This document shows positions 49,927 through 64,000 of a DNA stretch of 64,000 bases, in pieces. The notes beneath the pieces were generated by a model, which did not search any database, had not been told where the DNA came from, and worked only from the letters and a program-made list of their open reading frames with translations. Within the stretch, counting starts at the first letter, position 1. Every line of letters begins with the position of its first letter. This DNA is from Candidatus Anoxychlamydiales bacterium (lineage in GTDB: Bacteria > Chlamydiota > Chlamydiia > Chlamydiales > SM23-39), in contig JAAKFI010000001.1 of assembly GCA_011065125.1 (NCBI GenBank), forward strand, positions 25,964-89,963, read 5' to 3'. Both the position numbers and the translations under genes were made by a program.

Positions 49927-52836
49927 TTAAAGACTTTGCATATCGACTAGATTTTTAAAAAAGGAATTTTTTTTATACAAAGTATCAAAATTCCCAAAAT
50001 CAACTATTTCTCCATTTATCATTAAATAAATTCTATCAGCATTTTTAATGGTATCTAATCTATGTGCTATAACAATTCTAGTTATTCTTAATTTATCAAT
50101 ATTTTCGCTTATTTCTTTTTGAAGAGAATTATCAAAAAAAGAGGTAGCTTCATCTAAAATCAAAATATTAGGCTTGGAAATTAAAGCTCTAGTTAATACA
50201 AGCTGTTGTTTTTGCCCCCCGGATAGATTTTTACCATTATCAGTTAAATAAGTTTGAAGTCCCATTGGAAAGCATTTTAAAGTTTCATCAAATTTTGTTA
50301 TTTTCATAACTCTTTCAATTTCTTGACTAGGTACTATTTTTGAAAAAATTAAATTTTCTTCAAGAGTTCCAGAAAAAACTTCACTTCCCTGAAGAACTAC
50401 ACCTAGCTGTTTTCTTACTTTTGTAATATCTAGATCATTTAAATTTTTACCATCAACAAATATTGAGCCAGAATTTGGCTTATAATAGTTAAGTAAAAGT
50501 CGAATTAATGTGGATTTGCCGCAGTTGGTCGGTCCGACTATTGCTATTAATTCACCAGGAGATGCTTTTATAGAGACATTTTTTAAAACTAAAGGAAGAT
50601 TTTCTTCATATCTAAAACTGACATTTTCAACATCCAAAAATCCTTTTATTATACCTGGGTCTAAAACTTCTTTTTTTCTCTCAAGTGGATAGGTTAATAT
50701 AATTTTAGATCTTTTCCATCTAGGAATTATCATGCCAATGTAACTTATTAGTGTTACAAATAAAGAATTCATGGCTGTTGCAAAAGCAGCAAAAGCTGCA
50801 TTGAATGCAATAAAATTACCCAGATTGAATTTATTTGTTTTTAATAGAAAAATAGCAAATGCAAATATAAAAAAGGTTCCCAGGGTTAAAAAAACAGCAT
50901 TTATTGAGCTTAAAAAAGATGCTAAATAATCAGATGAAAGGGTTTTAGATCTAATTTTAGAAAACCTACTGCCCCATTTTTCAAAAAGAATTTTTTCAGA
51001 AGAAGATAGTCTTATTTTTTCTATTCCTGATAAAATTTGAAGAATAAATCCATTTAGTTTTGATTGTTCATTTAATACATCTGTATCTATTTTGATTTTT
51101 ATTTTTAAAATAAAAATAAAAATAAATAAATAAACAGTTAAAAAAGCGAGATTAATTAAAGCAAGTTGCCAGCTATAAAAGAACATTTGAATAAAATATA
51201 GAAAGGAAAATATACCCATGAATAAAGAGCTTATAAATCCACTTGATAAGATTCTTTGAACTTCGAACATTTCAAAAAGTCTTTTTAGAAGATCTCCTTT
51301 TGTAAAATTTTTAAAAAATGAAATTGGAAGTCTTAAAAATCTATCAAACAGGCCTACTTGGAAACGAATCCTTATTTTTGATTGGATTCTTAATATTACA
51401 AATGAGCTAGTAAATGAAAAAAGAGCTGAAGATATTGCAGCTATAAAAAGACCAAAAGCAACTTGGTATAAAAGACCTTTTTCAAAATGGGGAATAATTA
51501 TATTAAATATCTTAGAATTTGCAAATGGTATATAAAATGCGAGCATTATAGAAATAAGGCTATAAAATATGAAATTGAAAACTTCTTTTGATTGGTTTTT
51601 TAAACAGAACTTTAATATTTTTTTGCCGTTTAGATTTTCATATCCAAATGTCTCATAAAATTCATAAGTTTCATTTTCAAGTAAATCTTTTGTGGTTTTA
51701 GTAATTTTTATTTTTGATTTTATATCAGGATCGATGATCTCATAATGTTTTTTATTTTTTATTATAGCTACAGGTTTTTTACCTTCTTTTAAAAAGCCTA
51801 AAAAATTAGAACTTTCTTTTTTATACCAAGTATTTTTTAATGTTACTTTTCTATAACGTACATTCGAATTTTCACATATTTCATAAATGATATTGTTTAT
51901 TTCTTTTTCATAAATTTTTTTAGAAATCTCAAAATGGATTTTTAAAGAATCCCCTACTACTTTTAAAGCATTAAAAAGTTTATCTTTTGTCTCAATTGGA
52001 ATTTCAATTGGCTTTTTTTCAAAAATATTAAAAAAAGAAACAAGTGTTTTGTTAATAAGATGTTTTTCAAGATCTTTTTTTTCAAAAATTCGATTTTTTT
52101 CATTTTTATTTTTTATTAACATTTGCTTGAAAAGATAATCTAAAATGATTTTATGAAAAAAATTGAGAATATTTTCAAAATTTTTATTTTTTATTACATT
52201 TTTTGTATCTAAAACATCTACTAAAATTTCATCTTTAAAAGAAAAAAAAGTTTTATAAGACATTGGAAAGATTTGATTTTCTTTAACAATCATTTTTTTT
52301 TCATTTAAAAAATTCATTGAACCTTTTTTTATTTCTATCCAGCGAATTTGGGTTTTATCTTTTAAGAAAAAATCTATCATTATATCTTTTTGATCTTTAG
52401 AGTAGAGTTTTGTTGGTTTATCAAAAAATAAAAAAGTATCTATCTCTTCTTTGAATATTATTATGAGATTTTCATATATGTTTACGATCCAACTGTTTAT
52501 TTTATTAGAAAAAGAATTTAAAAATTCTTCAGAGTTTAAATTTTTTAATATATCTTCAATGGATATTTCAAATATTTTACTATTATCTGATACTGCAGCA
52601 AAAATTTTAAGATCACTCGTTAAATTCTCAAAACTAAAAAAAATATTATCTTTTTCAATACTTGCTAAAAATGTTTTTCTAATGAATGTTTTATCTTTTT
52701 TTTCTTCAAAAAAGATATCGACACTTCCTTCTTCAACATAATATATTTTTTTTATGCTGCTCAAATCGATTTTTAAATTTTGTTGCTCTAAAAAGACTTC
52801 TTTTCCTATTTTTTTAAAATCATTTTGAGTTAACAT
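49927..52836 (-). CDS. NHLM/NHLP-type bacteriocin export ABC transporter permease/ATPase with N-terminal cNMP-binding-like domain
   Basis: 969 aa. The N-terminal ~340 aa are soluble with YYVEEGSVDIFF (cNMP-binding-like beta-roll). A six-TM ABC exporter domain follows, with Walker A GPTNCGKST, signature LSGGQKQQ and Walker B ILILDEATS. The gene starts immediately after the C39-ABC stop. Confidence 0.8.
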   Translation of the reverse strand: MLTQNDFKKIGKEVFLEQQNLKIDLSSIKKIYYVEEGSVDIFFEEKKDKTFIRKTFLASIEKDNIFFSFENLTSDLKIFAAVSDNSKIFEISIEDILKNLNSEEFLNSFSNKINSWIVNIYENLIIIFKEEIDTFLFFDKPTKLYSKDQKDIMIDFFLKDKTQIRWIEIKKGSMNFLNEKKMIVKENQIFPMSYKTFFSFKDEILVDVLDTKNVIKNKNFENILNFFHKIILDYLFKQMLIKNKNEKNRIFEKKDLEKHLINKTLVSFFNIFEKKPIEIPIETKDKLFNALKVVGDSLKIHFEISKKIYEKEINNIIYEICENSNVRYRKVTLKNTWYKKESSNFLGFLKEGKKPVAIIKNKKHYEIIDPDIKSKIKITKTTKDLLENETYEFYETFGYENLNGKKILKFCLKNQSKEVFNFIFYSLISIMLAFYIPFANSKIFNIIIPHFEKGLLYQVAFGLFIAAISSALFSFTSSFVILRIQSKIRIRFQVGLFDRFLRLPISFFKNFTKGDLLKRLFEMFEVQRILSSGFISSLFMGIFSFLYFIQMFFYSWQLALINLAFLTVYLFIFIFILKIKIKIDTDVLNEQSKLNGFILQILSGIEKIRLSSSEKILFEKWGSRFSKIRSKTLSSDYLASFLSSINAVFLTLGTFFIFAFAIFLLKTNKFNLGNFIAFNAAFAAFATAMNSLFVTLISYIGMIIPRWKRSKIILTYPLERKKEVLDPGIIKGFLDVENVSFRYEENLPLVLKNVSIKASPGELIAIVGPTNCGKSTLIRLLLNYYKPNSGSIFVDGKNLNDLDITKVRKQLGVVLQGSEVFSGTLEENLIFSKIVPSQEIERVMKITKFDETLKCFPMGLQTYLTDNGKNLSGGQKQQLVLTRALISKPNILILDEATSFFDNSLQKEISENIDKLRITRIVIAHRLDTIKNADRIYLMINGEIVDFGNFDTLYKKNSFFKNLVDMQSL

Positions 52837-55011
52837 TTATTTTAGTCCTTGATCTTTTACAAGTTTTTGATAGAGACCTTCTTTATGTTTTAAAGTCTCA
52901 TGATTTCCTCTTTGAATCACTTTTCCTTTTTCTAAAACTATTATTTCATCTGCATCTTTAATCGTGCTGAGTCTGTGAGCTACCATAATAAGAGTGCAAC
53001 CTCTTCTTTTTATGCTTTTTAAAATGTTATTTTCTGTTTGAGAATCAACACTTGATGTAGCTTCATCTAGTAATATTATTCTAGGGTTTTTAACTAAAGC
53101 TCTAGCTATTTCAACTCTTTGTTTTTGACCTCCACTCAAATTTCTACCTTCTTCATATATAGTAGCATTATAATTTAAATTTTGAGATATGATCTCATCA
53201 TGTATAGCAGCGTCTTTGGCAGCTTTGAAAATATTATTTTCTGAAATAGTGTGATCCCAAAGTGTAATGTTATCATTGTATGTTCCTTCAAATAAAAAGG
53301 AATTTTGATCAACAGAAGAAAGTGATCTTAAAAAAAGATCGCTATTAATATTACAGAATGGGATGTTGTCATATAGAATTTCTCCACTCCAAGGAGCATA
53401 AATTCCTTTTAATAAATTTAAAATTGTCGTTTTGCCAGATCCAATTAAACCTACAAAAGCAATTGATTGACCAGGAGTTAAACTGAAACTTAAATTTTCA
53501 ATATAAGGCTCTTTATTTTTATCGAATCCAAAAGATAGATTTTTTACTTCAATAAATCCTTCCAGATATGATTTATTTTTAGTCGTATCAGTATTTTTAA
53601 ATTCAAAAACTTGATCTTTTTTTTGATTTAGAACATCATCGATTCTATTTATATCAGATTTGCTTTCTTGCAGCATTTGACCTAAATTTATAAATCTTAT
53701 GAAGGGAATTAAAAAATTTAAAAGTAACATCTGAATTGCTAACATCATACCGATAGAAATTGTTCCATCCAATACCTTTAAAGTACCAATAAGTAAAAAA
53801 AATGAAATTGTTATTATTTGAAATATTTGTGGAAAAGAAGTTAAAAAAATGTCTTTTAAATTTATACTTTGTACACCAATAAGAGTTTTAGTAAAATATC
53901 CAGACCATCTAGCAAAAAAAACGGATTCTCCACCAGAAGCTTTGAGCGTTTCAATATTTGCAATCCCTCCAACTGTAATTCCTAGAATTTTTCCAAAATC
54001 CATTTGAAATCTGGCAAAATCATCACTTCTACTTCTATTGATGTATTTTAATAAAAAGAAGTTTAAGGCTACTGAGATTAAGGCTACTATTGCTATTTCA
54101 AAACTTAGTTGAATAATTACTAATAGATAAAAAATTACAAAAAACAAATTAACTATCGAAACTGCTAGCTGGGTTGTTAACATATATGTGATAAAATCAT
54201 TTAGATAAAGCCTGTTTGCTATTTCACCAGCATATCTCATTAAATAAAATTTAATTGGAAGTCTCAAAACATGTTTAAATAATTTTCCAGACCAGGAAAT
54301 TGAAGATTTAGCATTCAATTTAGCAAAAATATATCCTTGCAAAAAGTTCATTGATATTGAAAAAATAATTGTCAAAAAAAAGATAGAAAAGAAAAAAACT
54401 CTATTATAATTTATTTGAATTATTTGATCATAAAATATTTGTATTAAAACAGGAATTATAAGTCCTGGAAACACTAATAAAAAAGTTGCTATTATTGAAT
54501 ATGTAAGTGATTTTTTTACATTTTTAAATCTATTAAAAACAGATTCAAATAAACTAAACGGCCTTCCTGTTTTTTTAAATTTATCCGTCTTTTCAAATTC
54601 AATTGTAATACCAGTATAACTTTCATCAAATTCCTCAATGGATACTTTTCTAGGTCCTGATGCTGGATCATTTATATAAAAACCATTTCTATAATAACCT
54701 TCGAGTACTACAAAGTGATTAAATTTCCAGTAAATAATGCATGGAAATTTTAAAAAATTTAGTTCATTAATTTCTCTTTTATATCCATCAGCTTTTAAGC
54801 CTAATTTTGTAGCTCCATCAATAATTTGATAAGCATTGGATCCATCTCTTGTAATAGAACATAATTCTCTTAAATTCTCTAAGGATATAAATTTTTTAAA
54901 ATAAGCTAAAATAATCCCTAAGGCTACTGCACCACATTCAACTATTTCCATTTGAATAATAGTCGGTGTTTTAACTCTTTTTCTAAAAAATAATTTATTT
55001 ATAAATTTCAT
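52837..55011 (-). CDS. peptidase-C39-domain ABC transporter (PCAT; leader-cleaving exporter)
   Basis: 724 aa. N-terminal C39 domain with IQMEIVECGAVALGIIL (catalytic Cys26), NHFVVL (His) and INDP (Asp). TMD, then Walker A GLIGSGKTT, LSGGQKQRV and IILLDEATS. Confidence 0.88.
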   Translation of the reverse strand: MKFINKLFFRKRVKTPTIIQMEIVECGAVALGIILAYFKKFISLENLRELCSITRDGSNAYQIIDGATKLGLKADGYKREINELNFLKFPCIIYWKFNHFVVLEGYYRNGFYINDPASGPRKVSIEEFDESYTGITIEFEKTDKFKKTGRPFSLFESVFNRFKNVKKSLTYSIIATFLLVFPGLIIPVLIQIFYDQIIQINYNRVFFFSIFFLTIIFSISMNFLQGYIFAKLNAKSSISWSGKLFKHVLRLPIKFYLMRYAGEIANRLYLNDFITYMLTTQLAVSIVNLFFVIFYLLVIIQLSFEIAIVALISVALNFFLLKYINRSRSDDFARFQMDFGKILGITVGGIANIETLKASGGESVFFARWSGYFTKTLIGVQSINLKDIFLTSFPQIFQIITISFFLLIGTLKVLDGTISIGMMLAIQMLLLNFLIPFIRFINLGQMLQESKSDINRIDDVLNQKKDQVFEFKNTDTTKNKSYLEGFIEVKNLSFGFDKNKEPYIENLSFSLTPGQSIAFVGLIGSGKTTILNLLKGIYAPWSGEILYDNIPFCNINSDLFLRSLSSVDQNSFLFEGTYNDNITLWDHTISENNIFKAAKDAAIHDEIISQNLNYNATIYEEGRNLSGGQKQRVEIARALVKNPRIILLDEATSSVDSQTENNILKSIKRRGCTLIMVAHRLSTIKDADEIIVLEKGKVIQRGNHETLKHKEGLYQKLVKDQGLK

Positions 55012-55850
55012 AACTTTATTTTCTTTGAAAACCAGAATGGCAGTAAATAAGCTATAGGTTTTGTTTCAATCAATATAACATCTACATCAGATAAAGTTCC
55101 AAGAGGTATATCATCAGCTAAAGGAGGTTCAATTTTAGACTCTGCATATAAAGGATAAACAATAATGGGTATCACAGGACCGTCTTTAGTAAAATAATCA
55201 TAAAAACGTTTACCTAAAAGTATTTTGTTAAAATAAGTTTCATCAGCAGGAATATAGGATATTTTTTCCACTCTGCCATAAAATTGTTTTTTTTCATTAG
55301 GCTCTAATGCCCATGAAAAGATTTTTACTTTCATATTGTTTCGTATTTTATCACCTTCTTTAAAAGGAATGAAACAATAGAATTTCTCATGGTTGCTTTT
55401 GAAATAGTTGTTAGATTTTTGTAATTCTATCAATATCTGATTTTTTAATGCTGTATCTCCATTATTTAGATAGATATTAGTGATTAGACCATCATAAGGA
55501 GATTTTATATTAATTTTTTCATTTGTTTGTAGATCTTGTATAACAGCTACTATATCATCCTTTTTGACCTTTGATCCAATAAATTCTTTTACATCAACTA
55601 TGCCTTTAGAAGGTGAAACAATAGATTCTATTTTTGAAAAATCTAAGAAAATACCCTTTCCATCTGCAATAGTTGTTATTTTCCCCAAAAAAGCCCATGA
55701 TATAATTGAAATTATAATAATAATCCCAACAATTAAAGCTATCCAATCTTTTGGTTTAACAATGATTAAGAGTTTATCTAACTCTTCTAATGAAGATATA
55801 TTTTCAAGTGCTTTTTTTCTGAATATTGATTTTTTTTCTTCCTTAATCAT
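55008..55850 (-). CDS. HlyD-family / NHLM bacteriocin-system secretion adaptor protein (short form)
   Basis: 280 aa. N-terminus FRKKALENISSLEELDKLLIIVKPKDWIALIVG plus a single TM, followed by a lipoyl/barrel-sandwich-like SPSKGIVDV...GSKVKKDDIVAVI. 4-nt overlap with the C39-ABC gene. Confidence 0.75.
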   Translation of the reverse strand: MIKEEKKSIFRKKALENISSLEELDKLLIIVKPKDWIALIVGIIIIISIISWAFLGKITTIADGKGIFLDFSKIESIVSPSKGIVDVKEFIGSKVKKDDIVAVIQDLQTNEKINIKSPYDGLITNIYLNNGDTALKNQILIELQKSNNYFKSNHEKFYCFIPFKEGDKIRNNMKVKIFSWALEPNEKKQFYGRVEKISYIPADETYFNKILLGKRFYDYFTKDGPVIPIIVYPLYAESKIEPPLADDIPLGTLSDVDVILIETKPIAYLLPFWFSKKIKL

Positions 55851-56036
55851 AATTACCAGCCTAATTTCTTTAATATAATAATACTACTAATTAATTAGCA
55901 AGTATTTGAATAATTAATAGAATCTTTACTATATATGTAGATTTGTGTAGTTTTTTAGAAGCGATGAAAAAAAATTAGAAATTTATATTTTGATGAAATC
56001 AGAAAGAGGATCTCATGAAATAAAATCTGAATTTAG

Positions 56037-56109
56037 GTGAGTAGAGCGATGGCCCCCCCCCCTCAGCCTCTTGCAGAACCGTACGTGAGACTTTCGTCTC
56101 GTACGACTC
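56037..56109 (-). mobile_element. group II intron 3' remnant (domain V plus domain VI)
   Basis: Minus strand 56109-56076 reads GAGTCGTACGAGAC-GAAA-GTCTC-AC-GTACGGTTC. That is a 34-nt hairpin with a 9-bp lower helix, AC bulge, 5-bp upper helix and GAAA tetraloop, matching the domain V consensus except that the triad reads AGT rather than AGC. It is followed by a D6-like ...GCTCTACTCAC. No room exists for a full intron before the upstream gene at 56270. Confidence 0.65.
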
Positions 56110-56269
56110 CCATCAAGCAAATACACCTATCAAGTTTTAAACAAGATTTCTTTTTTTGATGACCTAAAAAAAAAGAACATGACTAATTTCACAGCTAAAG
56201 CTATAGGCATACGCCGTTTTCTTTTTCGCTCAGATACATTCTTTTTAATAATATATTGTTTAGAATTTG

Positions 56270-57244
56270 TTAATTTTTTTTAGCAATGTATACTTGCCAT
56301 CCTAAAACATCATTTATACCTACTTTAAAAATAGGAAAAAATGTATTAATAACTTTAAAACCAATTTTTTTCAAATCAGATGAATTTATCAATGACATAG
56401 TTTTACAAATTAAAATAATGTAGCCATTGAGATTTAAAAAATTATAGGCATTTTTTAAAAATTCAATGGCATTTTGGTGTTCTATTACGCCCTTTGCAAT
56501 CATTCCAGATCCAATGATTACATCTACTTTATCATCAAAAAAAATAGACTTTGAAATATCTTTATATTCAATTATTGCATTTTTATAATCCTTTAGTCTT
56601 ATTTTTATTTCATCCAAAATATTTTTGTTATCATACATATAATCCCATAGATAATAATTGGATATTTTGTCAGAAAAAGAGTTCAAAATCATTTTGGCTA
56701 AAAGACCATTTCCAGAGCCTATTTCTAAAATTTTATTTTTATTTTTTTTTTGTAAAATTAACTTCATTATTTCATAAAAAAAAGGATGAATAAAATTTTC
56801 ATAAATAGTGCGTAAATTAGGCTTAAAATAATCAAGCCAGTATTCTTTTTGTTTTAATGCAAAATTACTTTGAGAGTGGCTTTCTATCTCATTGCCATTT
56901 AAAAAATAAGATAATTTTGCAAGATTGTCTGTAATAGATTCAATTGTTTTTCTATCGGTAATAAAATACCTATTTTTTCCTTCGTCAATGACCAGATCTT
57001 TTTCCCAATAAAATTTATTTTCATGAAGAGAAATAAAATGAACTTTAAAAGATATATTTTTAAAATTAATAAAATAATTTATGTCTGAAAAACTATGTTT
57101 TATCTTAGCTTTATCAAAAGCTATATTAGATTTTTTTGCATCAGATAATATTTGATCAATAATTTTAAAAATTTCAGATGCATTAGCTTTTTTTTTGGGT
57201 TGAATTACTAGTTCATCAGAGATTTGAATATCAAATTTCAGCAT
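56270..57244 (-). CDS. class I SAM-dependent methyltransferase with unassigned ~140-aa N-terminal domain
   Basis: 324 aa. Motif I KILEIGSGNGLLA at residues 171-183. Its start overlaps the rSAM gene end by 14 nt. Confidence 0.8.
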   Translation of the reverse strand: MLKFDIQISDELVIQPKKKANASEIFKIIDQILSDAKKSNIAFDKAKIKHSFSDINYFINFKNISFKVHFISLHENKFYWEKDLVIDEGKNRYFITDRKTIESITDNLAKLSYFLNGNEIESHSQSNFALKQKEYWLDYFKPNLRTIYENFIHPFFYEIMKLILQKKNKNKILEIGSGNGLLAKMILNSFSDKISNYYLWDYMYDNKNILDEIKIRLKDYKNAIIEYKDISKSIFFDDKVDVIIGSGMIAKGVIEHQNAIEFLKNAYNFLNLNGYIILICKTMSLINSSDLKKIGFKVINTFFPIFKVGINDVLGWQVYIAKKN

Positions 57245-58661
57245 TAAAAACCTCGGAACCTTTTTTGATAAGTTGTTCTATTTGATAGTTTTTTATTTGA
57301 TTAGCAAATAAATCTCTTCTAAATAAATTATGTACTTTTTCAGAGTCATTAAAGGAAAAAATTAACCAGGAGAGCTCCTCATCTGTTACAATCAATTTAT
57401 TTTCGCTTAAATACTTATTAGGATCTAATAAAAAAAAATCTATATTTTTTTTTGAATTATAAATATTTAAATAAGCTTTTTGAAATGTTTTTTCTTTAAA
57501 AATATATTTTGTTTTATCAAAAAGATTATATTTTGATGATATAAAATCCCATTCTTGTTGAAAGTTTGTATTTAAATCTGGTTCTTTTCTTTCTATCTTT
57601 TTTAGATTAACTTTTCTTTTAATTTTGTCGATAAAACAAAAAGGATTTTCTGCAAAAGGATCCTTAGTATTTGCAAAAACTTTTGATGGACAGCCTCGAC
57701 AAACAGTATAAAAATGGCAATTTCCACATGCAGCATAATATTTAGCTCTTCTTAATTTTTTTAAGTAAATATTACCTAAAAAAACCTCTTCAAAACTTTG
57801 CTGAGGTAATTTACCTATGTTAATAGGAAGAAGTTTACAAGCATAGGCTCCACCATCAGGTCCTATTTGAGGAGGAGTAAATCCTGTAGAACATCCTAAT
57901 AGAAAATCAGGGTTCGGTATTGGTAAATATTTTCCTCTTTCAAAGAGTATAAGTTTTAATAAATGGGCATCATGATTAAATCTTAATTTGCAATTTTGTT
58001 TTTGAAGTTCATCTTTTGTATCAAGATATTTGGATAAAATTTCATAAAGTTCATCGGGAGTAAATGAAGTTAAGTTTTTTCTAGCATTTCCAATAGCACA
58101 TCCAACTGCAAACGAAAATTTTTCCAATTTTGTATCTTTTGCTAAAAATTTAATTAGTGGAATAAAAGAGTCTTTATTTGACGGATAAAGTGTAAATCTA
58201 ACTGATGATGCGAATCCAAAATCATTTATTAAATTAAGTGCATTAAGAGTATTTTTAAAACTTCCTTTTCTTCTGGTAAGATCATGATCTTTTTCTAATC
58301 CATCTAAACTTAATTGAATTTCTTTAACATTAAAATCTTTTAATTTTTTTAAATTTTTTTCAGTTAAAGATTCAGGATTTGCCAAGACTCTGATATTATC
58401 ACTTTTTTTTTGTAGTTCTTGAAAAAATTCTTCCCAATCTTTTCTGAGTAGTGGATCTCCACCTGTTATATTAAAATCAGACATCTTTACATTATATTTT
58501 TTTTCAAAGTCTTCAATTTGATCAAGGATCTTTACTAAATCTCTTATAGGAAGAGCATTTTTTCTTTCATTTTCATAAATAGAATCTTCATGCATATAAC
58601 AATGTTTACAGTTATTATTACAACTAGTTGTTATGCTCATGAGAATTCTAAATTTAAACAT
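57231..58661 (-). CDS. radical SAM enzyme with SPASM-like auxiliary cluster domain (RiPP maturase candidate)
   Basis: 476 aa. CX3CX2C at C14/C18/C21 (SCNNNCKHC) and a GGDPLL SAM-binding motif. C-terminal Cys set C257, C275, then C312-x2-C315-x5-C321-x2-C324 and C342. About 134 further residues are unassigned. Confidence 0.85.
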   Translation of the reverse strand: MFKFRILMSITTSCNNNCKHCYMHEDSIYENERKNALPIRDLVKILDQIEDFEKKYNVKMSDFNITGGDPLLRKDWEEFFQELQKKSDNIRVLANPESLTEKNLKKLKDFNVKEIQLSLDGLEKDHDLTRRKGSFKNTLNALNLINDFGFASSVRFTLYPSNKDSFIPLIKFLAKDTKLEKFSFAVGCAIGNARKNLTSFTPDELYEILSKYLDTKDELQKQNCKLRFNHDAHLLKLILFERGKYLPIPNPDFLLGCSTGFTPPQIGPDGGAYACKLLPINIGKLPQQSFEEVFLGNIYLKKLRRAKYYAACGNCHFYTVCRGCPSKVFANTKDPFAENPFCFIDKIKRKVNLKKIERKEPDLNTNFQQEWDFISSKYNLFDKTKYIFKEKTFQKAYLNIYNSKKNIDFFLLDPNKYLSENKLIVTDEELSWLIFSFNDSEKVHNLFRRDLFANQIKNYQIEQLIKKGSEVFNAEI

Positions 58662-58864
58662 AAATATCTCCTTTTTCAGATCATTTTTATTTTTTAAGCT
58701 CTATCCTAATATTTAATCTAAAAATTTTATATTATTTTTTTTTCTTATAAGAAAATAAAATTATTTTAACCTTGGATTAACATATTTTTTAAATTGGCAG
58801 CAATCATCCAACAATTAAATTGATTGGTTTTCGATGCCTATTTTACTTTTAAAAGAATTTTAAT

Positions 58865-59056
58865 TTATAGCTGAGCTGCAGCTACATCATCAAAACCGCC
58901 AGCTAATTCTTTTAATTCTTCATGAGATATTTTTTTACCTGAGGATTGATTCAAAACTGCCATCATATTTAGGGTAGCTGCAATTGCTCTTTTTCTATTT
59001 TCTTCATTTTTTAGACCCCATTCTAAAAATTCTTTCCAATTTTTTTTTTGATCCAT
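58865..59056 (-). CDS. RiPP precursor peptide A2 (Nif11/NHLP-like leader, double-glycine, 9-aa core FDDVAAAQL)
   Basis: 63 aa: MDQKKNWKEFLEWGLKNEENRKRAIAATLNMMAVLNQSSGKKISHEELKELAGG-FDDVAAAQL. AGGAAA RBS-like sequence 5 nt upstream. Sits directly upstream of the rSAM gene. Confidence 0.8.
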   Translation of the reverse strand: MDQKKNWKEFLEWGLKNEENRKRAIAATLNMMAVLNQSSGKKISHEELKELAGGFDDVAAAQL

Positions 59057-59144
59057 ATTGTTTCCTTTTTTTTAGGGTTTAAGATATTATAAATTAATAA
59101 TGTAATAAATTTAGCCTGTCAATTAAATATTTTTAAATTGAATT

Positions 59145-59345
59145 CTAGAGTTTAAATTCCAATTCATCAAAACTGTCAGCTACTTTGTTTAATTCTTCAC
59201 TAGATATTTTTTCATCTGGGGAACGATACAAAATTGCCAACATTTTTAAGCCAGCTGCCATAGCTCTTTTTCTATTTTCTTCATTTTTTAAACCCCACTC
59301 TAAGAATTCTTCCCAAGATTGTTTTGGATTCATATTTTTCTCCAT
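59145..59345 (-). CDS. RiPP precursor peptide A1 (paralogous leader, no GG, 8-aa C-terminal segment FDELEFKL)
   Basis: 66-aa ORF. It probably starts at the internal ATG at 59333 (GGAG 8 nt upstream), giving a 62-aa product that aligns gap-free with A2. The block EFLEWGLKNEENRKRA is identical in both. Confidence 0.75.
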   Translation of the reverse strand: MEKNMNPKQSWEEFLEWGLKNEENRKRAMAAGLKMLAILYRSPDEKISSEELNKVADSFDELEFKL

Positions 59346-59370
59346 TAGTAAATAAATTTGTTTAAAAATT

Positions 59371-59398
59371 ATTTTATTATATATTTTTTTTTAGTCAA
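59371..59398 (-). promoter_or_regulatory. sigma-70-like promoter candidate for the precursor/maturase operon
   Basis: Minus strand: TTGACT (59398-59393), 16-nt spacer, TAAAAT (59376-59371), about 25-40 nt upstream of the precursor start. AT-rich context makes chance matches likely. Confidence 0.3.
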
Positions 59399-59423
59399 TC
59401 TAAATAATTTAATTTTGACATAC

Positions 59424-59445
59424 TCCCACGACTAAAGTCGAGGGA
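59424..59445 (-). mobile_element. IS200/IS605-type right-end hairpin downstream of the tnpB fragment
   Basis: tcccacgac-taaa-gtcgaggga imperfect palindrome (one A.A mismatch). It is relatively GC-rich and lies just 3' of the TnpB remnant, where IS605-family ends and guide-RNA scaffolds lie. Confidence 0.45.
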
Positions 59446-59453
59446 TTCTGGTT

Positions 59454-59666
59454 TTAAGCGGGAATTGCTCTAGCATTTCGAGTCTTATTTTCCCTATTCC
59501 ACAAGACAATGCCCTGTCTTTTTATGTTTCTAGCAGCGTTTTTATCTCTCATTATTGTTTTTTTGCAATGAGGACAAATCCATATTCTATCTTTCAGAGT
59601 TAAATCTTCATTTATGTTGTTGCAGTGATAACAAGTTTCTCTAAGTTGATATTTTTTCTTTGCCAA
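59454..59666 (-). pseudogene. tnpB: TnpB (IS605 OrfB) C-terminal fragment
   Basis: ETCYHCNNINEDLTLKDRIWICPHCKKTIMRDKNAARNIKRQG matches the TnpB zinc-ribbon/RuvC-III end (CxxC...L.dR.w.CxxC...RD.NAA.NI). Only about 70 aa are present, against about 400 aa for an intact protein. Confidence 0.75.
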
Positions 59667-61236: not shown

Positions 61237-64000
61237 TTATTCCAGAGGTAAGAATTTTTTCTTTTTAGCTGAAAAATAAATTTTTTCAAAAACTTCATAA
61301 CTTGAAAGCGTATCATTGTTTATATATTTTCTATATGATTCACAATCTAATATTATATAACTTTTCCAATGTCTATATGGAAAATAATTTATATCTTGAA
61401 GTCTATATAATATCTCAAAATTATCAATAAATGATGGTTTTTGCAGTGCAATAATAATCGGTGCAATAATAATTGGTTCTTTATAAAATATTGTAAAAGG
61501 AGATCCTCCTAAACTAGAATAAAAGTAGGTACTCCATATTTCTGTAGAAGAATTTACAAATAAAGTTCCTGGTATAAAGGTGGTATTATTTAAAGTTGCG
61601 CTGGACCCTATTTTATTATTTCCTCTTAATGCAGTAAATATTCTAAGGGAACCACCACCATTTCTTCCAACAGTTGACGAGGAAAATATTTTAAAAGCTC
61701 CATCCCCCAAATTTGGAAAAGTTGGAAAATCATTATCTACTACTAAAGTTAAATTTCCAAAGCCATTGTTTATTATTCTACTATGATCATTTAAAATAAT
61801 ATCTTTTCCTGCTTTTATGGTTAAATCATTTGTAGTATTGTTTATTTCAGTAGTATTAGATAAAGATCCTAAAAGAGAAATATTATTTCCCGCTTCTATA
61901 TTTGTTGTTGACGCCCCAGATATAAAAGATTGATTGGCATTTGATGAAGTTATAGAAATATCATTGGAAGCTGTGATATTTAATACACCTATATTTGTTT
62001 GTACATATCCACCATCAGAAATATTTAGATTAGCATTTAAATTTATTGTTGTAGCTGCACTAGATGTATTTAATATTTCGGAAGAAAGATTATTTATTGT
62101 ATCAGCTGTTATGTTCATAATACCGTTTGTTTTTATACTACACATTTTCGAAGCTGCCCCTAACAAATTTATTGTGCTATCGGAATTTATTGTCATGGTA
62201 TCTACTCCAACAATAGTTGCAATATCATTAGTTCCGGAAAAAAGAGAAGCATTTCCATTTAATGTAAGATTAAGATCATAGCCAGATGTATTTGGAAGCC
62301 CAGTTGTTATAATAACTTGATCTCCTGCATTTGAATTCATTAAAAGCTCATCATTTACTGTTACATTGATATTACAAAGAGCCGTTGGGCTATTAGTATT
62401 TACACTTAATGTTCCTATCAATACATCTGCAACATTTCCTGAAGTTCCTGTTAAATTTCCAATCATAGATAAGTCATTTGTAGCTTCAACATTCACTGAA
62501 CTTATTTTAAAGTCAGCGGTATTTGTTGCTCCTGTTATTCGACTCATAAGACCTCCAATAAAAGCAGTAGAATTTCTAGCTCCTGCCATAGAAATAGAGT
62601 CGTTTGCTTTTACTTTTACAATTGATGTAGAATCCACTATTAAAACTTCATTGACAGGGGGAACTCCCCCTAAGGTTACATACGATCCATGAAAGCCAAT
62701 TCCTACTACATTATTAGAAACATCTCCTGCAGAAAGATTATCATTTCCTGTCATTGTAATATTATTTGCTTCAATATTGATTTCACCTTGAAAAGTTATA
62801 GATTGATTAGTCCAAGCTCCACCATGGCCTATCAATGCAAAATTATTATTAGTATTTTTGCTCTCAAGAGATAAATTTCTTGTAATTACACCCGCTATAT
62901 TAGAAGAAGCTCCTCTAATATCACCTGTTATTGTTTGGGTTGATGTAGAACCTCTTTGCCTTAGATGCCCAATTAAAGCAAAGTCATTCGAACTACTTGA
63001 ACTAGCTTGCAATATGGCATCTCTTCCGACAGAATGAATAATAATATTACCGGTATAATTTCCGTTCATAACAACCGCTCCTATGCCAATATGAGCATAG
63101 GTAGTAGCAGCTGTTCCAGCAAGCATCTTTAAGTCTCTTCCTACTGTTAATTCTATATTCGTATTCGGATTTCCTGTTTGATTCCAACCAATAATTGCAG
63201 GAGTAGAAGCCAAACTTCCTCCTTGTAAAATTAAATCTTGATTTGCATTTACAGCTATTGTTCCGCTGAATGTTCCAATTATACTTTCAACAGAACCTGT
63301 GGTGCTAAGAAGTTCAATATTATTAGTTCTTGAAAAAGCTGAAATATTTCCTGAAGTATCATTTAGAATTCTACGCTTAACATTCAGAAGATTATTAGCA
63401 TCTAAAGTTAATTGACTTGATCTTGTCGAAATATTACTTATTGCATTGATATCACCCGCAGCTCCTGTTGTTTGAAAAAGAACAGTACCTGTTAAGCCAC
63501 TTGTAAATGTTAAAGGCTCATTAATTTCAATATTATTAAAAGCAATATAGCTTGCATTCGTAGCATTTTTTACTTCATAGAAATTAGCAGTAGAGGTAAA
63601 TGTTAAAGCTCCGGCTGTTGTTTTTAGAAGTACTATATCAGAGCTCTCTATGTCTAATCCATCAGTTAATGTGAGATCACCTACTGATTCAATAGAAAAA
63701 CTTCCTGTTTGAGTGCTATTAACTAATGATGAATTACTTTCCAAAATAAAAGTTCCAGATGAATTAATATCCACAGTATCAACATCTGTTAAAGTAAATT
63801 TTCTAAGTTGAATATTCCCAATTGAAGTAGTTATATTTAAATTACTAGCATCATCAATAGTGATAGTACCATTACGAACGCTTGAAAGTCGTTCAAAAAT
63901 TATATTTCCTGTAGTAGATGTTATGTTAATTTCATCTACATTTGTCATTACAAAAGGACGCTTAAAATGAACATCATCCACAGCTTGGAGGGTTAATGTT
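61237..64000 (-). CDS. large repetitive beta-helix-like surface protein (adhesin / FHA- or Pmp-like), N-terminus beyond window
   Basis: The frame is open from 64000 with no upstream stop, and the track start at 63981 is only an internal GTG. More than 900 aa are rich in N/S/T/G/I, with degenerate periodic motifs (..NITASNDISITSSN.., FALIGH recurring). Confidence 0.6.
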   Translation of the reverse strand, partial: TLTLQAVDDVHFKRPFVMTNVDEINITSTTGNIIFERLSSVRNGTITIDDASNLNITTSIGNIQLRKFTLTDVDTVDINSSGTFILESNSSLVNSTQTGSFSIESVGDLTLTDGLDIESSDIVLLKTTAGALTFTSTANFYEVKNATNASYIAFNNIEINEPLTFTSGLTGTVLFQTTGAAGDINAISNISTRSSQLTLDANNLLNVKRRILNDTSGNISAFSRTNNIELLSTTGSVESIIGTFSGTIAVNANQDLILQGGSLASTPAIIGWNQTGNPNTNIELTVGRDLKMLAGTAATTYAHIGIGAVVMNGNYTGNIIIHSVGRDAILQASSSSSNDFALIGHLRQRGSTSTQTITGDIRGASSNIAGVITRNLSLESKNTNNNFALIGHGGAWTNQSITFQGEINIEANNITMTGNDNLSAGDVSNNVVGIGFHGSYVTLGGVPPVNEVLIVDSTSIVKVKANDSISMAGARNSTAFIGGLMSRITGATNTADFKISSVNVEATNDLSMIGNLTGTSGNVADVLIGTLSVNTNSPTALCNINVTVNDELLMNSNAGDQVIITTGLPNTSGYDLNLTLNGNASLFSGTNDIATIVGVDTMTINSDSTINLLGAASKMCSIKTNGIMNITADTINNLSSEILNTSSAATTINLNANLNISDGGYVQTNIGVLNITASNDISITSSNANQSFISGASTTNIEAGNNISLLGSLSNTTEINNTTNDLTIKAGKDIILNDHSRIINNGFGNLTLVVDNDFPTFPNLGDGAFKIFSSSTVGRNGGGSLRIFTALRGNNKIGSSATLNNTTFIPGTLFVNSSTEIWSTYFYSSLGGSPFTIFYKEPIIIAPIIIALQKPSFIDNFEILYRLQDINYFPYRHWKSYIILDCESYRKYINNDTLSSYEVFEKIYFSAKKKKFLPLE

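Follow-up and report, generated by a model that had tools for sequence, protein, structure and literature searches.

The gap between the methyltransferase (MT) gene and the HlyD-like gene of the locus described here contains the tail of a group II intron. Sequence comparison supports the assignment of this patch to the D5/D6 end of such an intron whose 5' part is lost, and we regard it as highly probable (about 0.9) that it is a non-functional, 5'-truncated piece of a bacterial group II intron of the endonuclease-lacking class. The surviving part corresponds to the last approximately 96 nt of the intron and comprises D5, D6 and, ahead of them, the final codons of the protein ORF. The window, i.e. 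the whole 64-kb stretch of DNA that was analysed, stems from a metagenome-assembled genome (MAG) of Candidatus Anoxychlamydiales bacterium (locus tags K1060chlam5_00072 and _00073) and has a GC content of 27.9%. The same locus is also found on the ENA scaffold BAEC19-1_SAMN10404973_METAG-scaffold_178 (L001). The relevant features are the following.

49927-52836, minus strand: second ABC transporter
52837-55011, minus strand: C39-peptidase ABC transporter, next after HlyD (TIGR03796, 861.8 bits, above the cut-off of 853.3)
55008-55850, minus strand: HlyD-like adaptor, first gene of the NHLP-type export module (TIGR03794, E = 4e-30, below the family's cut-off)
55851-55923, minus strand: conserved HlyD upstream region (85% identical to L050 over 73 nt)
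56037, minus strand: inferred last intron nucleotide, ...CUACUCAC followed by C (uncertain by 1-2 nt)
56037-56132, minus strand: intron-derived remnant of about 96 nt with protein ORF end, D5 and D6 (blastn against 44 intron 3' ends)
56040-56072, minus strand: D6 (positional comparison with 41 distinct D6 sequences of relatives)
56053-56062, minus strand: G10 run, read as C10 on the plus strand, that spans the terminal loop of D6 and a portion of its upper stem
56076-56109, minus strand: D5, a 34-nt hairpin (RF00029 alignment and minimum-energy fold)
56113-56127, minus strand: intron protein ORF end, GGT GTA TTT GCT TGA, i.e. GVFA (four codons) and stop
56133-56269, minus strand: spacer without detectable intron origin (HMM, alignment and blastn negative; MT flank to about 56255)
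56270-57244, minus strand: MT, last gene of the maturation module (weak methyltransferase Pfam matches)
57231-58661, minus strand: radical SAM/SPASM enzyme
58865-59056, minus strand: small candidate precursor gene
59145-59345, minus strand: small candidate precursor gene

The MT-HlyD gap has the length of 419 bp (55851-56269) that an earlier note on this DNA had given, and the wording of this note, which spoke of maturase and export halves, is fair for a modified-peptide cluster with an NHLP-type exporter. The candidate precursor peptides encoded at 58865-59056 and 59145-59345 (63 aa and 66 aa) have a common leader ...W(K/E)EFLEWGLKNEENRKRA... and gave no matches in Pfam and NCBIfam. The MT of the window ends with ...AKKN (56270-56282), whereas its homologues run on to AKKINRF or AKKIKKSLSKQRL before the stop codon; compared to contig L047, a 1-nt indel in an A run shifts the frame at this end. 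A 70-aa ORF at 59454-59666 (minus strand) is similar to Cas12f/TnpB-like proteins in their C-terminal TNB domain alone and is a transposon-gene (TnpB) fragment, i.e. another decayed mobile gene near the remnant. The ENA scaffold stops within this fragment, near window position 59468. Further on, a repetitive protein of 914 aa, rich in serine, threonine and asparagine and without a Pfam match, is encoded at 61237-63981 (minus strand) and could be a chlamydial surface protein.

In the covariance-model search that the earlier note had proposed, RF00029 (group II intron D5/D6) matched positions 56036-56111 on the minus strand with 45.9 bits, which is above the Rfam gathering score of 40 bits (E = 8e-06 for the whole window against 4227 Rfam families). 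The patch is indeed GC-rich, with 49% GC in 100-nt windows compared to about 20-30% in the flanks, and the remnant itself has 55% GC in a genome of 28% GC. The BLASTN comparison with bacterial introns, also proposed there, yielded 77-80% identity over 84-96 nt to annotated intron 3' ends. Our comparison set consisted of 44 intron 3' ends with the same D5 3' strand and linker, taken from 42 loci in species-representative genomes plus plasmid copies, and the alignments with this set were limited to a stretch from 56132 to 56030-56037. The best match is located in a Rhodothermales MAG (L012; 80.2% over 96 nt, E = 2e-20 in this small local database), and when full-length group II introns are counted along with the annotated ones, the identity at the 3' end is 76-80%. 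A plasmid-wide blastn search with the patch gave matches in 161 records; the plasmid intron matches span the same 56037-56132 stretch and, among the matches listed, represent 3' ends of group II intron reverse transcriptase/maturase genes or unannotated DNA. Of the approximately 220 nt (56037-56260) that had been claimed as a remnant, only the 96 nt or so at 56037-56132 are demonstrably intron-derived.

The two borders of the remnant can be compared with those of known introns. At its 5' side, GVFA and the following stop match the end of the intron protein of L012 (...GMTGVFA) and are close to the ends of those from Marinobacter and E. coli (...GAFA and ...SAFA); another stop codon is present in the same frame seven codons before GVFA. 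In L002, L003, L004 and L012, the intron protein ORF stops a few nucleotides before D5 or at the first bases of D5. The 3' end was placed with the help of near-identical E. coli-type copies at different sites (L003 and L032), which diverge directly after CAC. In a decayed intron from an Acidiferrobacterales MAG (L042, 1270-1290), ...CTACTCAC is followed by CTAAATT, the same 7 nt as at window 56030-56036, where contig L051 has CCTAAG after the intron 3' end. The heptanucleotide common to L042 and the window may reflect a target preference or chance.

The hairpin itself has the architecture that had been described from the sequence alone. The minus strand (56109-56076) starts with GAGCCGTACGAGACGAAAGTCTC... 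and reads GAGTCGTACGAGAC GAAA GTCTC AC GTACGGTTC, so that an AC bulge separates a lower helix of 9 bp from an upper helix of 5 bp, which is capped by a GAAA loop of the GNRA type. All 14 pairs are intact, and the minimum-energy structure predicted by RNAfold contains this hairpin. The catalytic triad reads AGU (AGT in the DNA, 56108-56106) in place of AGC, as noted before; pairing is retained as U-G. All 42 relatives compared (42/42) have GAGC at the base of D5, where the window has GAGT. The exact D5 occurs neither in 185,579 representative genomes nor in the JGI metagenome collection, and there is no other copy of the remnant within the 64-kb window.

The segment following D5 was likewise recognized correctly as D6-like with a candidate bulged branch-point A, which is located at 56042. 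It ends with ...GCTCTACTCAC at 56037 and its lower stem is AAGAGG/UCU-A-CUC. In the relatives, D6 consists of GAGAGG, a 7-bp stem with a 7-nt loop and then YCU-A-CUC. The window keeps 5/7 upper and 5/6 lower pairs, whereas 37 of the 41 distinct relative sequences keep at least 6/7 upper and at least 5/6 lower pairs. In addition, the G10 run replaces the 7-nt loop (e.g. UGAAACU in relatives) without changing the total length. Judged from this comparison, the D6 of the window is damaged, with two of seven upper-stem pairs broken and a G run as loop. The C10 run on the plus strand (56053-56062) had been called striking in such an AT-rich genome and is in fact the sole G/C homopolymer of at least 7 nt in the 64-kb window. 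It comprises ten G residues in the window and nine in the ENA scaffold, which is the sole difference between the two over 13.2 kb. The length of the run is therefore either heterogeneous or unreliable, and the mismatched base should not be trusted in either assembly. As far as base pairing and comparison with relatives can tell, the AGU triad, the broken D6 pairs and the G run show that the remnant is accumulating damage.

The other parts of the intron are missing, as the earlier note had stated for domains I-IV and the reverse transcriptase. The D1-D4 families gave no match at E ≤ 0.5 in the 64 kb and none at E ≤ 10 in 55000-59500, the sequence GTGYG (corresponding to the GUGYG 5' end) does not occur in 56133-56260, and there is no reverse transcriptase gene in the window. 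Since neither a D1-D4 match nor a reverse transcriptase gene is present, the patch is a 5'-truncated tail and not an internally deleted or ORF-less intron. In the full-length relatives, by comparison, D1D4-2 (RF01999) was scored wherever that region was available and was found in all five with 82-106 bits, beginning approximately 70 nt after the GTGYG 5' end and approximately 1.7 kb upstream of D5. The intron proteins of three relatives possess the Pfam domains RVT_1 and GIIM but no endonuclease domain. An internal deletion that kept the 5' end was rejected in view of the missing GTGYG and D1D4-2 and of the lack of a blast match to seven full-length relatives. The idea that the radical SAM and MT genes are the cargo of a giant intron was also discarded, since no D1-D4 motif occurs anywhere in the window.

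Upstream of D5, an HMM of the last 95 residues of the intron protein found nothing significant in the spacer, and blastn against the seven full-length relatives gave only chance matches of 11-12 nt upstream of the remnant. When 56127-56252 was aligned to seven intron protein C-termini by a frameshift-tolerant protein-to-DNA method, the score was 24, which is below the null means of 27.3 for shuffles and 26.3 for natural segments. A decayed coding sequence upstream of D5, suggested by eye from a resemblance of 'KKEILFKT' to 'KEQPRLFAHW', was rejected for this reason. We also considered that the MT tail ...LGWQVYIAKKN was borrowed from the maturase motif GWLNYYAKYY. This tail is the top HMM match and its spacing from the GVFA stop is about right, but it scores only -2.5 bits. 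The candidate was rejected, since the C-terminal GWQVYIAKK is conserved in the MT homologues P0002 and P0003; homologues with this motif include one from another locus with 56% identity.

The remaining spacer has several origins. The MT contig L047 (89% identical) aligns to the window as far as 56255, indicating native MT 3' flank up to this position, so that at most approximately 215 nt are left for any intron. A similarity of GCTTTAGCTGTG (window 56201-56190) to L051 222-233 was dismissed as chance (E = 7.6). On the other side, HlyD starts 186 nt downstream of the 3' end of the remnant, and the 60 nt of the upstream region that are proximal to HlyD are 84.5% identical to L051/L052. The conserved upstream region (55851-55923) holds a promoter-like site, TTGCTA-18-TATATT at 55901-55872, and also a near-palindrome, CTAATTAATTAG. 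No terminator-like site was predicted in the MT-HlyD gap. To judge from this conserved promoter-like site, a separate promoter between the remnant and HlyD probably serves the export genes, which need not be read through the remnant. Taken together, the analysis shows a composite spacer in which native MT flank is followed by unknown sequence, the intron tail, a second unknown stretch and finally the conserved promoter region of the export genes.

Such a composite spacer fits the notion that the two halves are separable modules, which follows from their separate occurrence in relatives. Export modules whose HlyD proteins have 55% and 37% identity to that of the window adjoin rnhB or a nucleotide transporter gene, and MT and intron are absent; no intron was found upstream of the export module in L053, L054 and L055. 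Conversely, behind a maturation module with an MT of 56% identity lie a DUF4277 fragment and a Fic gene instead of export genes. The contigs of the closest relative, whose proteins are 88-89% identical, break within the spacer. Among the related contigs that break off close to it, L047 stops 5 nt past MT, L050 begins 159 nt ahead of HlyD and L051 begins within an intron.

This last contig, JGI contig Ga0395805_0017957, encodes a HlyD protein 79% identical to that of the window. It opens inside the end of an intron protein ORF (WKLGVTGSFV and stop), which is followed by an RF00029 match of 47.3 bits on the HlyD strand that ends 301 nt before the HlyD start. Like the intron of the window, that of L051 thus lies on the HlyD strand at a similar place upstream of a homologous export module. 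Its D5/D6 recurs at another site in an essentially full-length intron (L057/L056) with D1D4-2 (93.9 bits) and a 429-aa reverse transcriptase and maturase protein ending with ...SFV, and the intron 3' end is CUACUCAC as in the window. In contrast, the D5 sequences of L051 and the window share only 16/34 positions, with compensatory changes in the lower helix, and L051 keeps the AGC triad. The L051 intron is therefore another lineage of the same class and not the ortholog of the remnant. Unlike the intron in the window, it is very probably not truncated at its site, as the contig begins in the open ORF end. Between its 3' end and the conserved HlyD upstream region, L051 contains a GC-rich element of approximately 130 nt (121-250) without an Rfam match at E ≤ 0.1 and without a match to full-length introns. 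A sub-threshold RAGATH-18 match (29.1 bits, gathering score 44.9) sits approximately 45 nt downstream of the full-length intron in L057 (1911-1985, plus strand) and L056 (527-601, minus strand).

The two insertions upstream of the export module may be due to a preferred target, to linkage with the module or to coincidence; the window no longer has the 5' exon, and L051 begins too late to include it. The similar placement of a same-class intron in L051 is a point against a mere dead remnant, since the position is perhaps not random. One could imagine that the spacer upstream of the export module is a recurrent landing site for endonuclease-lacking introns in Anoxychlamydiales-like chlamydiae, or that the intron travels with the module, and that the D5/D6 tail, still GC-rich and with a G run of variable length, was kept for an influence on export-gene expression, but we consider this quite unlikely.

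We favour the simpler history of a decayed, 5'-truncated intron. The parent very probably belonged to a class whose full-length members are approximately 1.85 kb long, carry D1D4-2 near the 5' end and encode a protein of approximately 415-440 aa with reverse transcriptase and maturase but no endonuclease domain, and it once lay between MT and the NHLP-type export module in the orientation of the genes. Group II introns integrate by reverse splicing and by reverse transcription from the intron 3' end. Endonuclease-lacking introns use replication-fork primers for this purpose (PMC4424553). The truncation may have arisen from reverse transcription that stopped early and left the 3' part of the intron, or from the later deletion of a full copy in a genome that holds other decayed mobile elements. 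Since cDNA synthesis starts at the intron 3' end, precisely D6, D5 and the ORF end would remain after an aborted event. Splicing cannot be catalysed by D5 and D6 on their own, and the remnant, which has lost D1-D4 and the protein, cannot splice, although a partner copy outside the 64 kb may supply missing functions in trans. The GC content of 55% and the 14 intact D5 pairs of the remnant point to a recent origin or to some constraint.

As an alternative, D5/D6 might have been co-opted as a structured RNA, i.e. as a stabiliser, a processing site or a transcription roadblock between the modules, with the G run maybe serving as a variable switch. The high GC content and intact D5 helix in a very AT-rich genome, the difference of G9 and G10 between the assemblies and the same-class intron upstream of the homologous HlyD in L051 are compatible with this, and a cis-regulatory fate of intergenic intron remnants has been suggested (Toro et al., PMC4181065). 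On the other hand, the D5 of L051 agrees with that of the window at only 16/34 positions and belongs to a full-length mobile intron, so that no common element is conserved in sequence; more distant export modules lack an intron, a conserved promoter-like site follows downstream of the remnant, the gap contains no terminator-like site and D6 is damaged. We therefore regard co-option as quite improbable. The suggestion of the earlier note that the remnant could have kept a function as a structured RNA element or in transcript processing likewise finds no support in view of the mutated triad, the damaged D6, the varying G run and the promoter-like site downstream.

The other explanations fare worse. 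The source is a metagenome-assembled genome and related contigs break close to the spacer (L047, L050 and L051), so that a multicopy intron could have been collapsed or could have mis-joined two contigs. Such an artefact is very unlikely, since two assemblies are identical over 13.2 kb save one base of the G run, the remnant is preceded by 120 nt of unique, AT-rich DNA that runs on without interruption from the MT flank, and a collapse would not yield a mutated triad or a damaged D6. An isolated D5-D6 piece also looks like the 3' half of a split intron, since the 3' halves of trans-splicing organellar introns are isolated D5-D6 pieces, and natural break points in domain IV have been noted (PMC4424553). 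A 5' half elsewhere is nevertheless hardly to be expected: no open reading frame runs on from the 3' splice site, the start of HlyD follows only after 186 nt and is preceded by a conserved region of its own, the triad is AGU and no D1-D4 match exists in the 64 kb. Moreover, the break lies at the end of the truncated protein ORF and not in a D4 loop. Finally, only the short length of the patch speaks for a chance GC-rich hairpin unrelated to introns. This explanation has practically no probability left and is refuted by the RF00029 match (E = 8e-06 over the window), the plasmid blastn matches and the blastn comparison with the 44 real intron ends (E = 2e-20, small local database), and the stop-codon context of the protein is common with real introns as well.

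The preferred reading as a truncated intron tail supports the core of the earlier note, namely a D5/D6 remnant without D1-D4 or reverse transcriptase, based on the RF00029 match, the homology to introns and the absence of D1D4-2. It also bears out that the remnant records past retroelement activity, here in a Candidatus Anoxychlamydiales genome. A rearrangement joint at this place is plausible, yet no observation connects the intron with a joining event. The finding has little significance beyond annotation; mildly interesting is the second, different intron of the same class upstream of a homologous export module in another contig.

The closest known systems are full-length introns of the RF01999 type, for instance in the Rhodothermales MAG (L012, JBGCEN010000094.1), the E. 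coli plasmid pECTOK-001_1 (L003), the Marinobacter salarius plasmid pHL2708Z5 (L002) and the Neochlamydia sp. S13 plasmid pS13 (L004). D5, the D5-D6 linker, the D6 layout and the 3' end CUACUCAC of these relatives are 73-80% identical to the window. In L003 and L012, the protein ORF stops 2 nt before D5, and the ending ...G(V/A)FA and stop of the window resembles L012, L002 and L003, whereas the Neochlamydia protein ends differently. In L004 (about 797-1200), two tRNA genes and an A8G11 run precede the full-length intron at a short distance. Compared to these introns, the window possesses only the last approximately 96 nt, without GUGYG, D1-D4 and protein, and has AGU instead of AGC and a G run in place of the D6 loop.

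The remnant also resembles FRE652, fragmented RmInt1-like elements of Sinorhizobium, which are intergenic remnants persisting beside conserved genes (Toro et al. 2014, PMC4181065); intergenic group II intron remnants can last for long periods (PMC4181065). Both are group II remnants in intergenic DNA near conserved genes. However, FRE652 keeps the 5' part of the ribozyme (D1-D3) and has lost the 3' end, while the opposite applies to the window, where the 3' part was kept and the 5' part lost. The literature retrieved on group II introns native to Chlamydiae dealt mainly with gene targeting by intron-based tools and with Chlamydia biology in general. [quoted passage not shown] Such fragments are therefore common, and the present one is a real but ordinary finding: a new instance of a known phenomenon, whose exact parent lineage is unsampled in the searched collections, as the absence of the exact D5 from them indicates.
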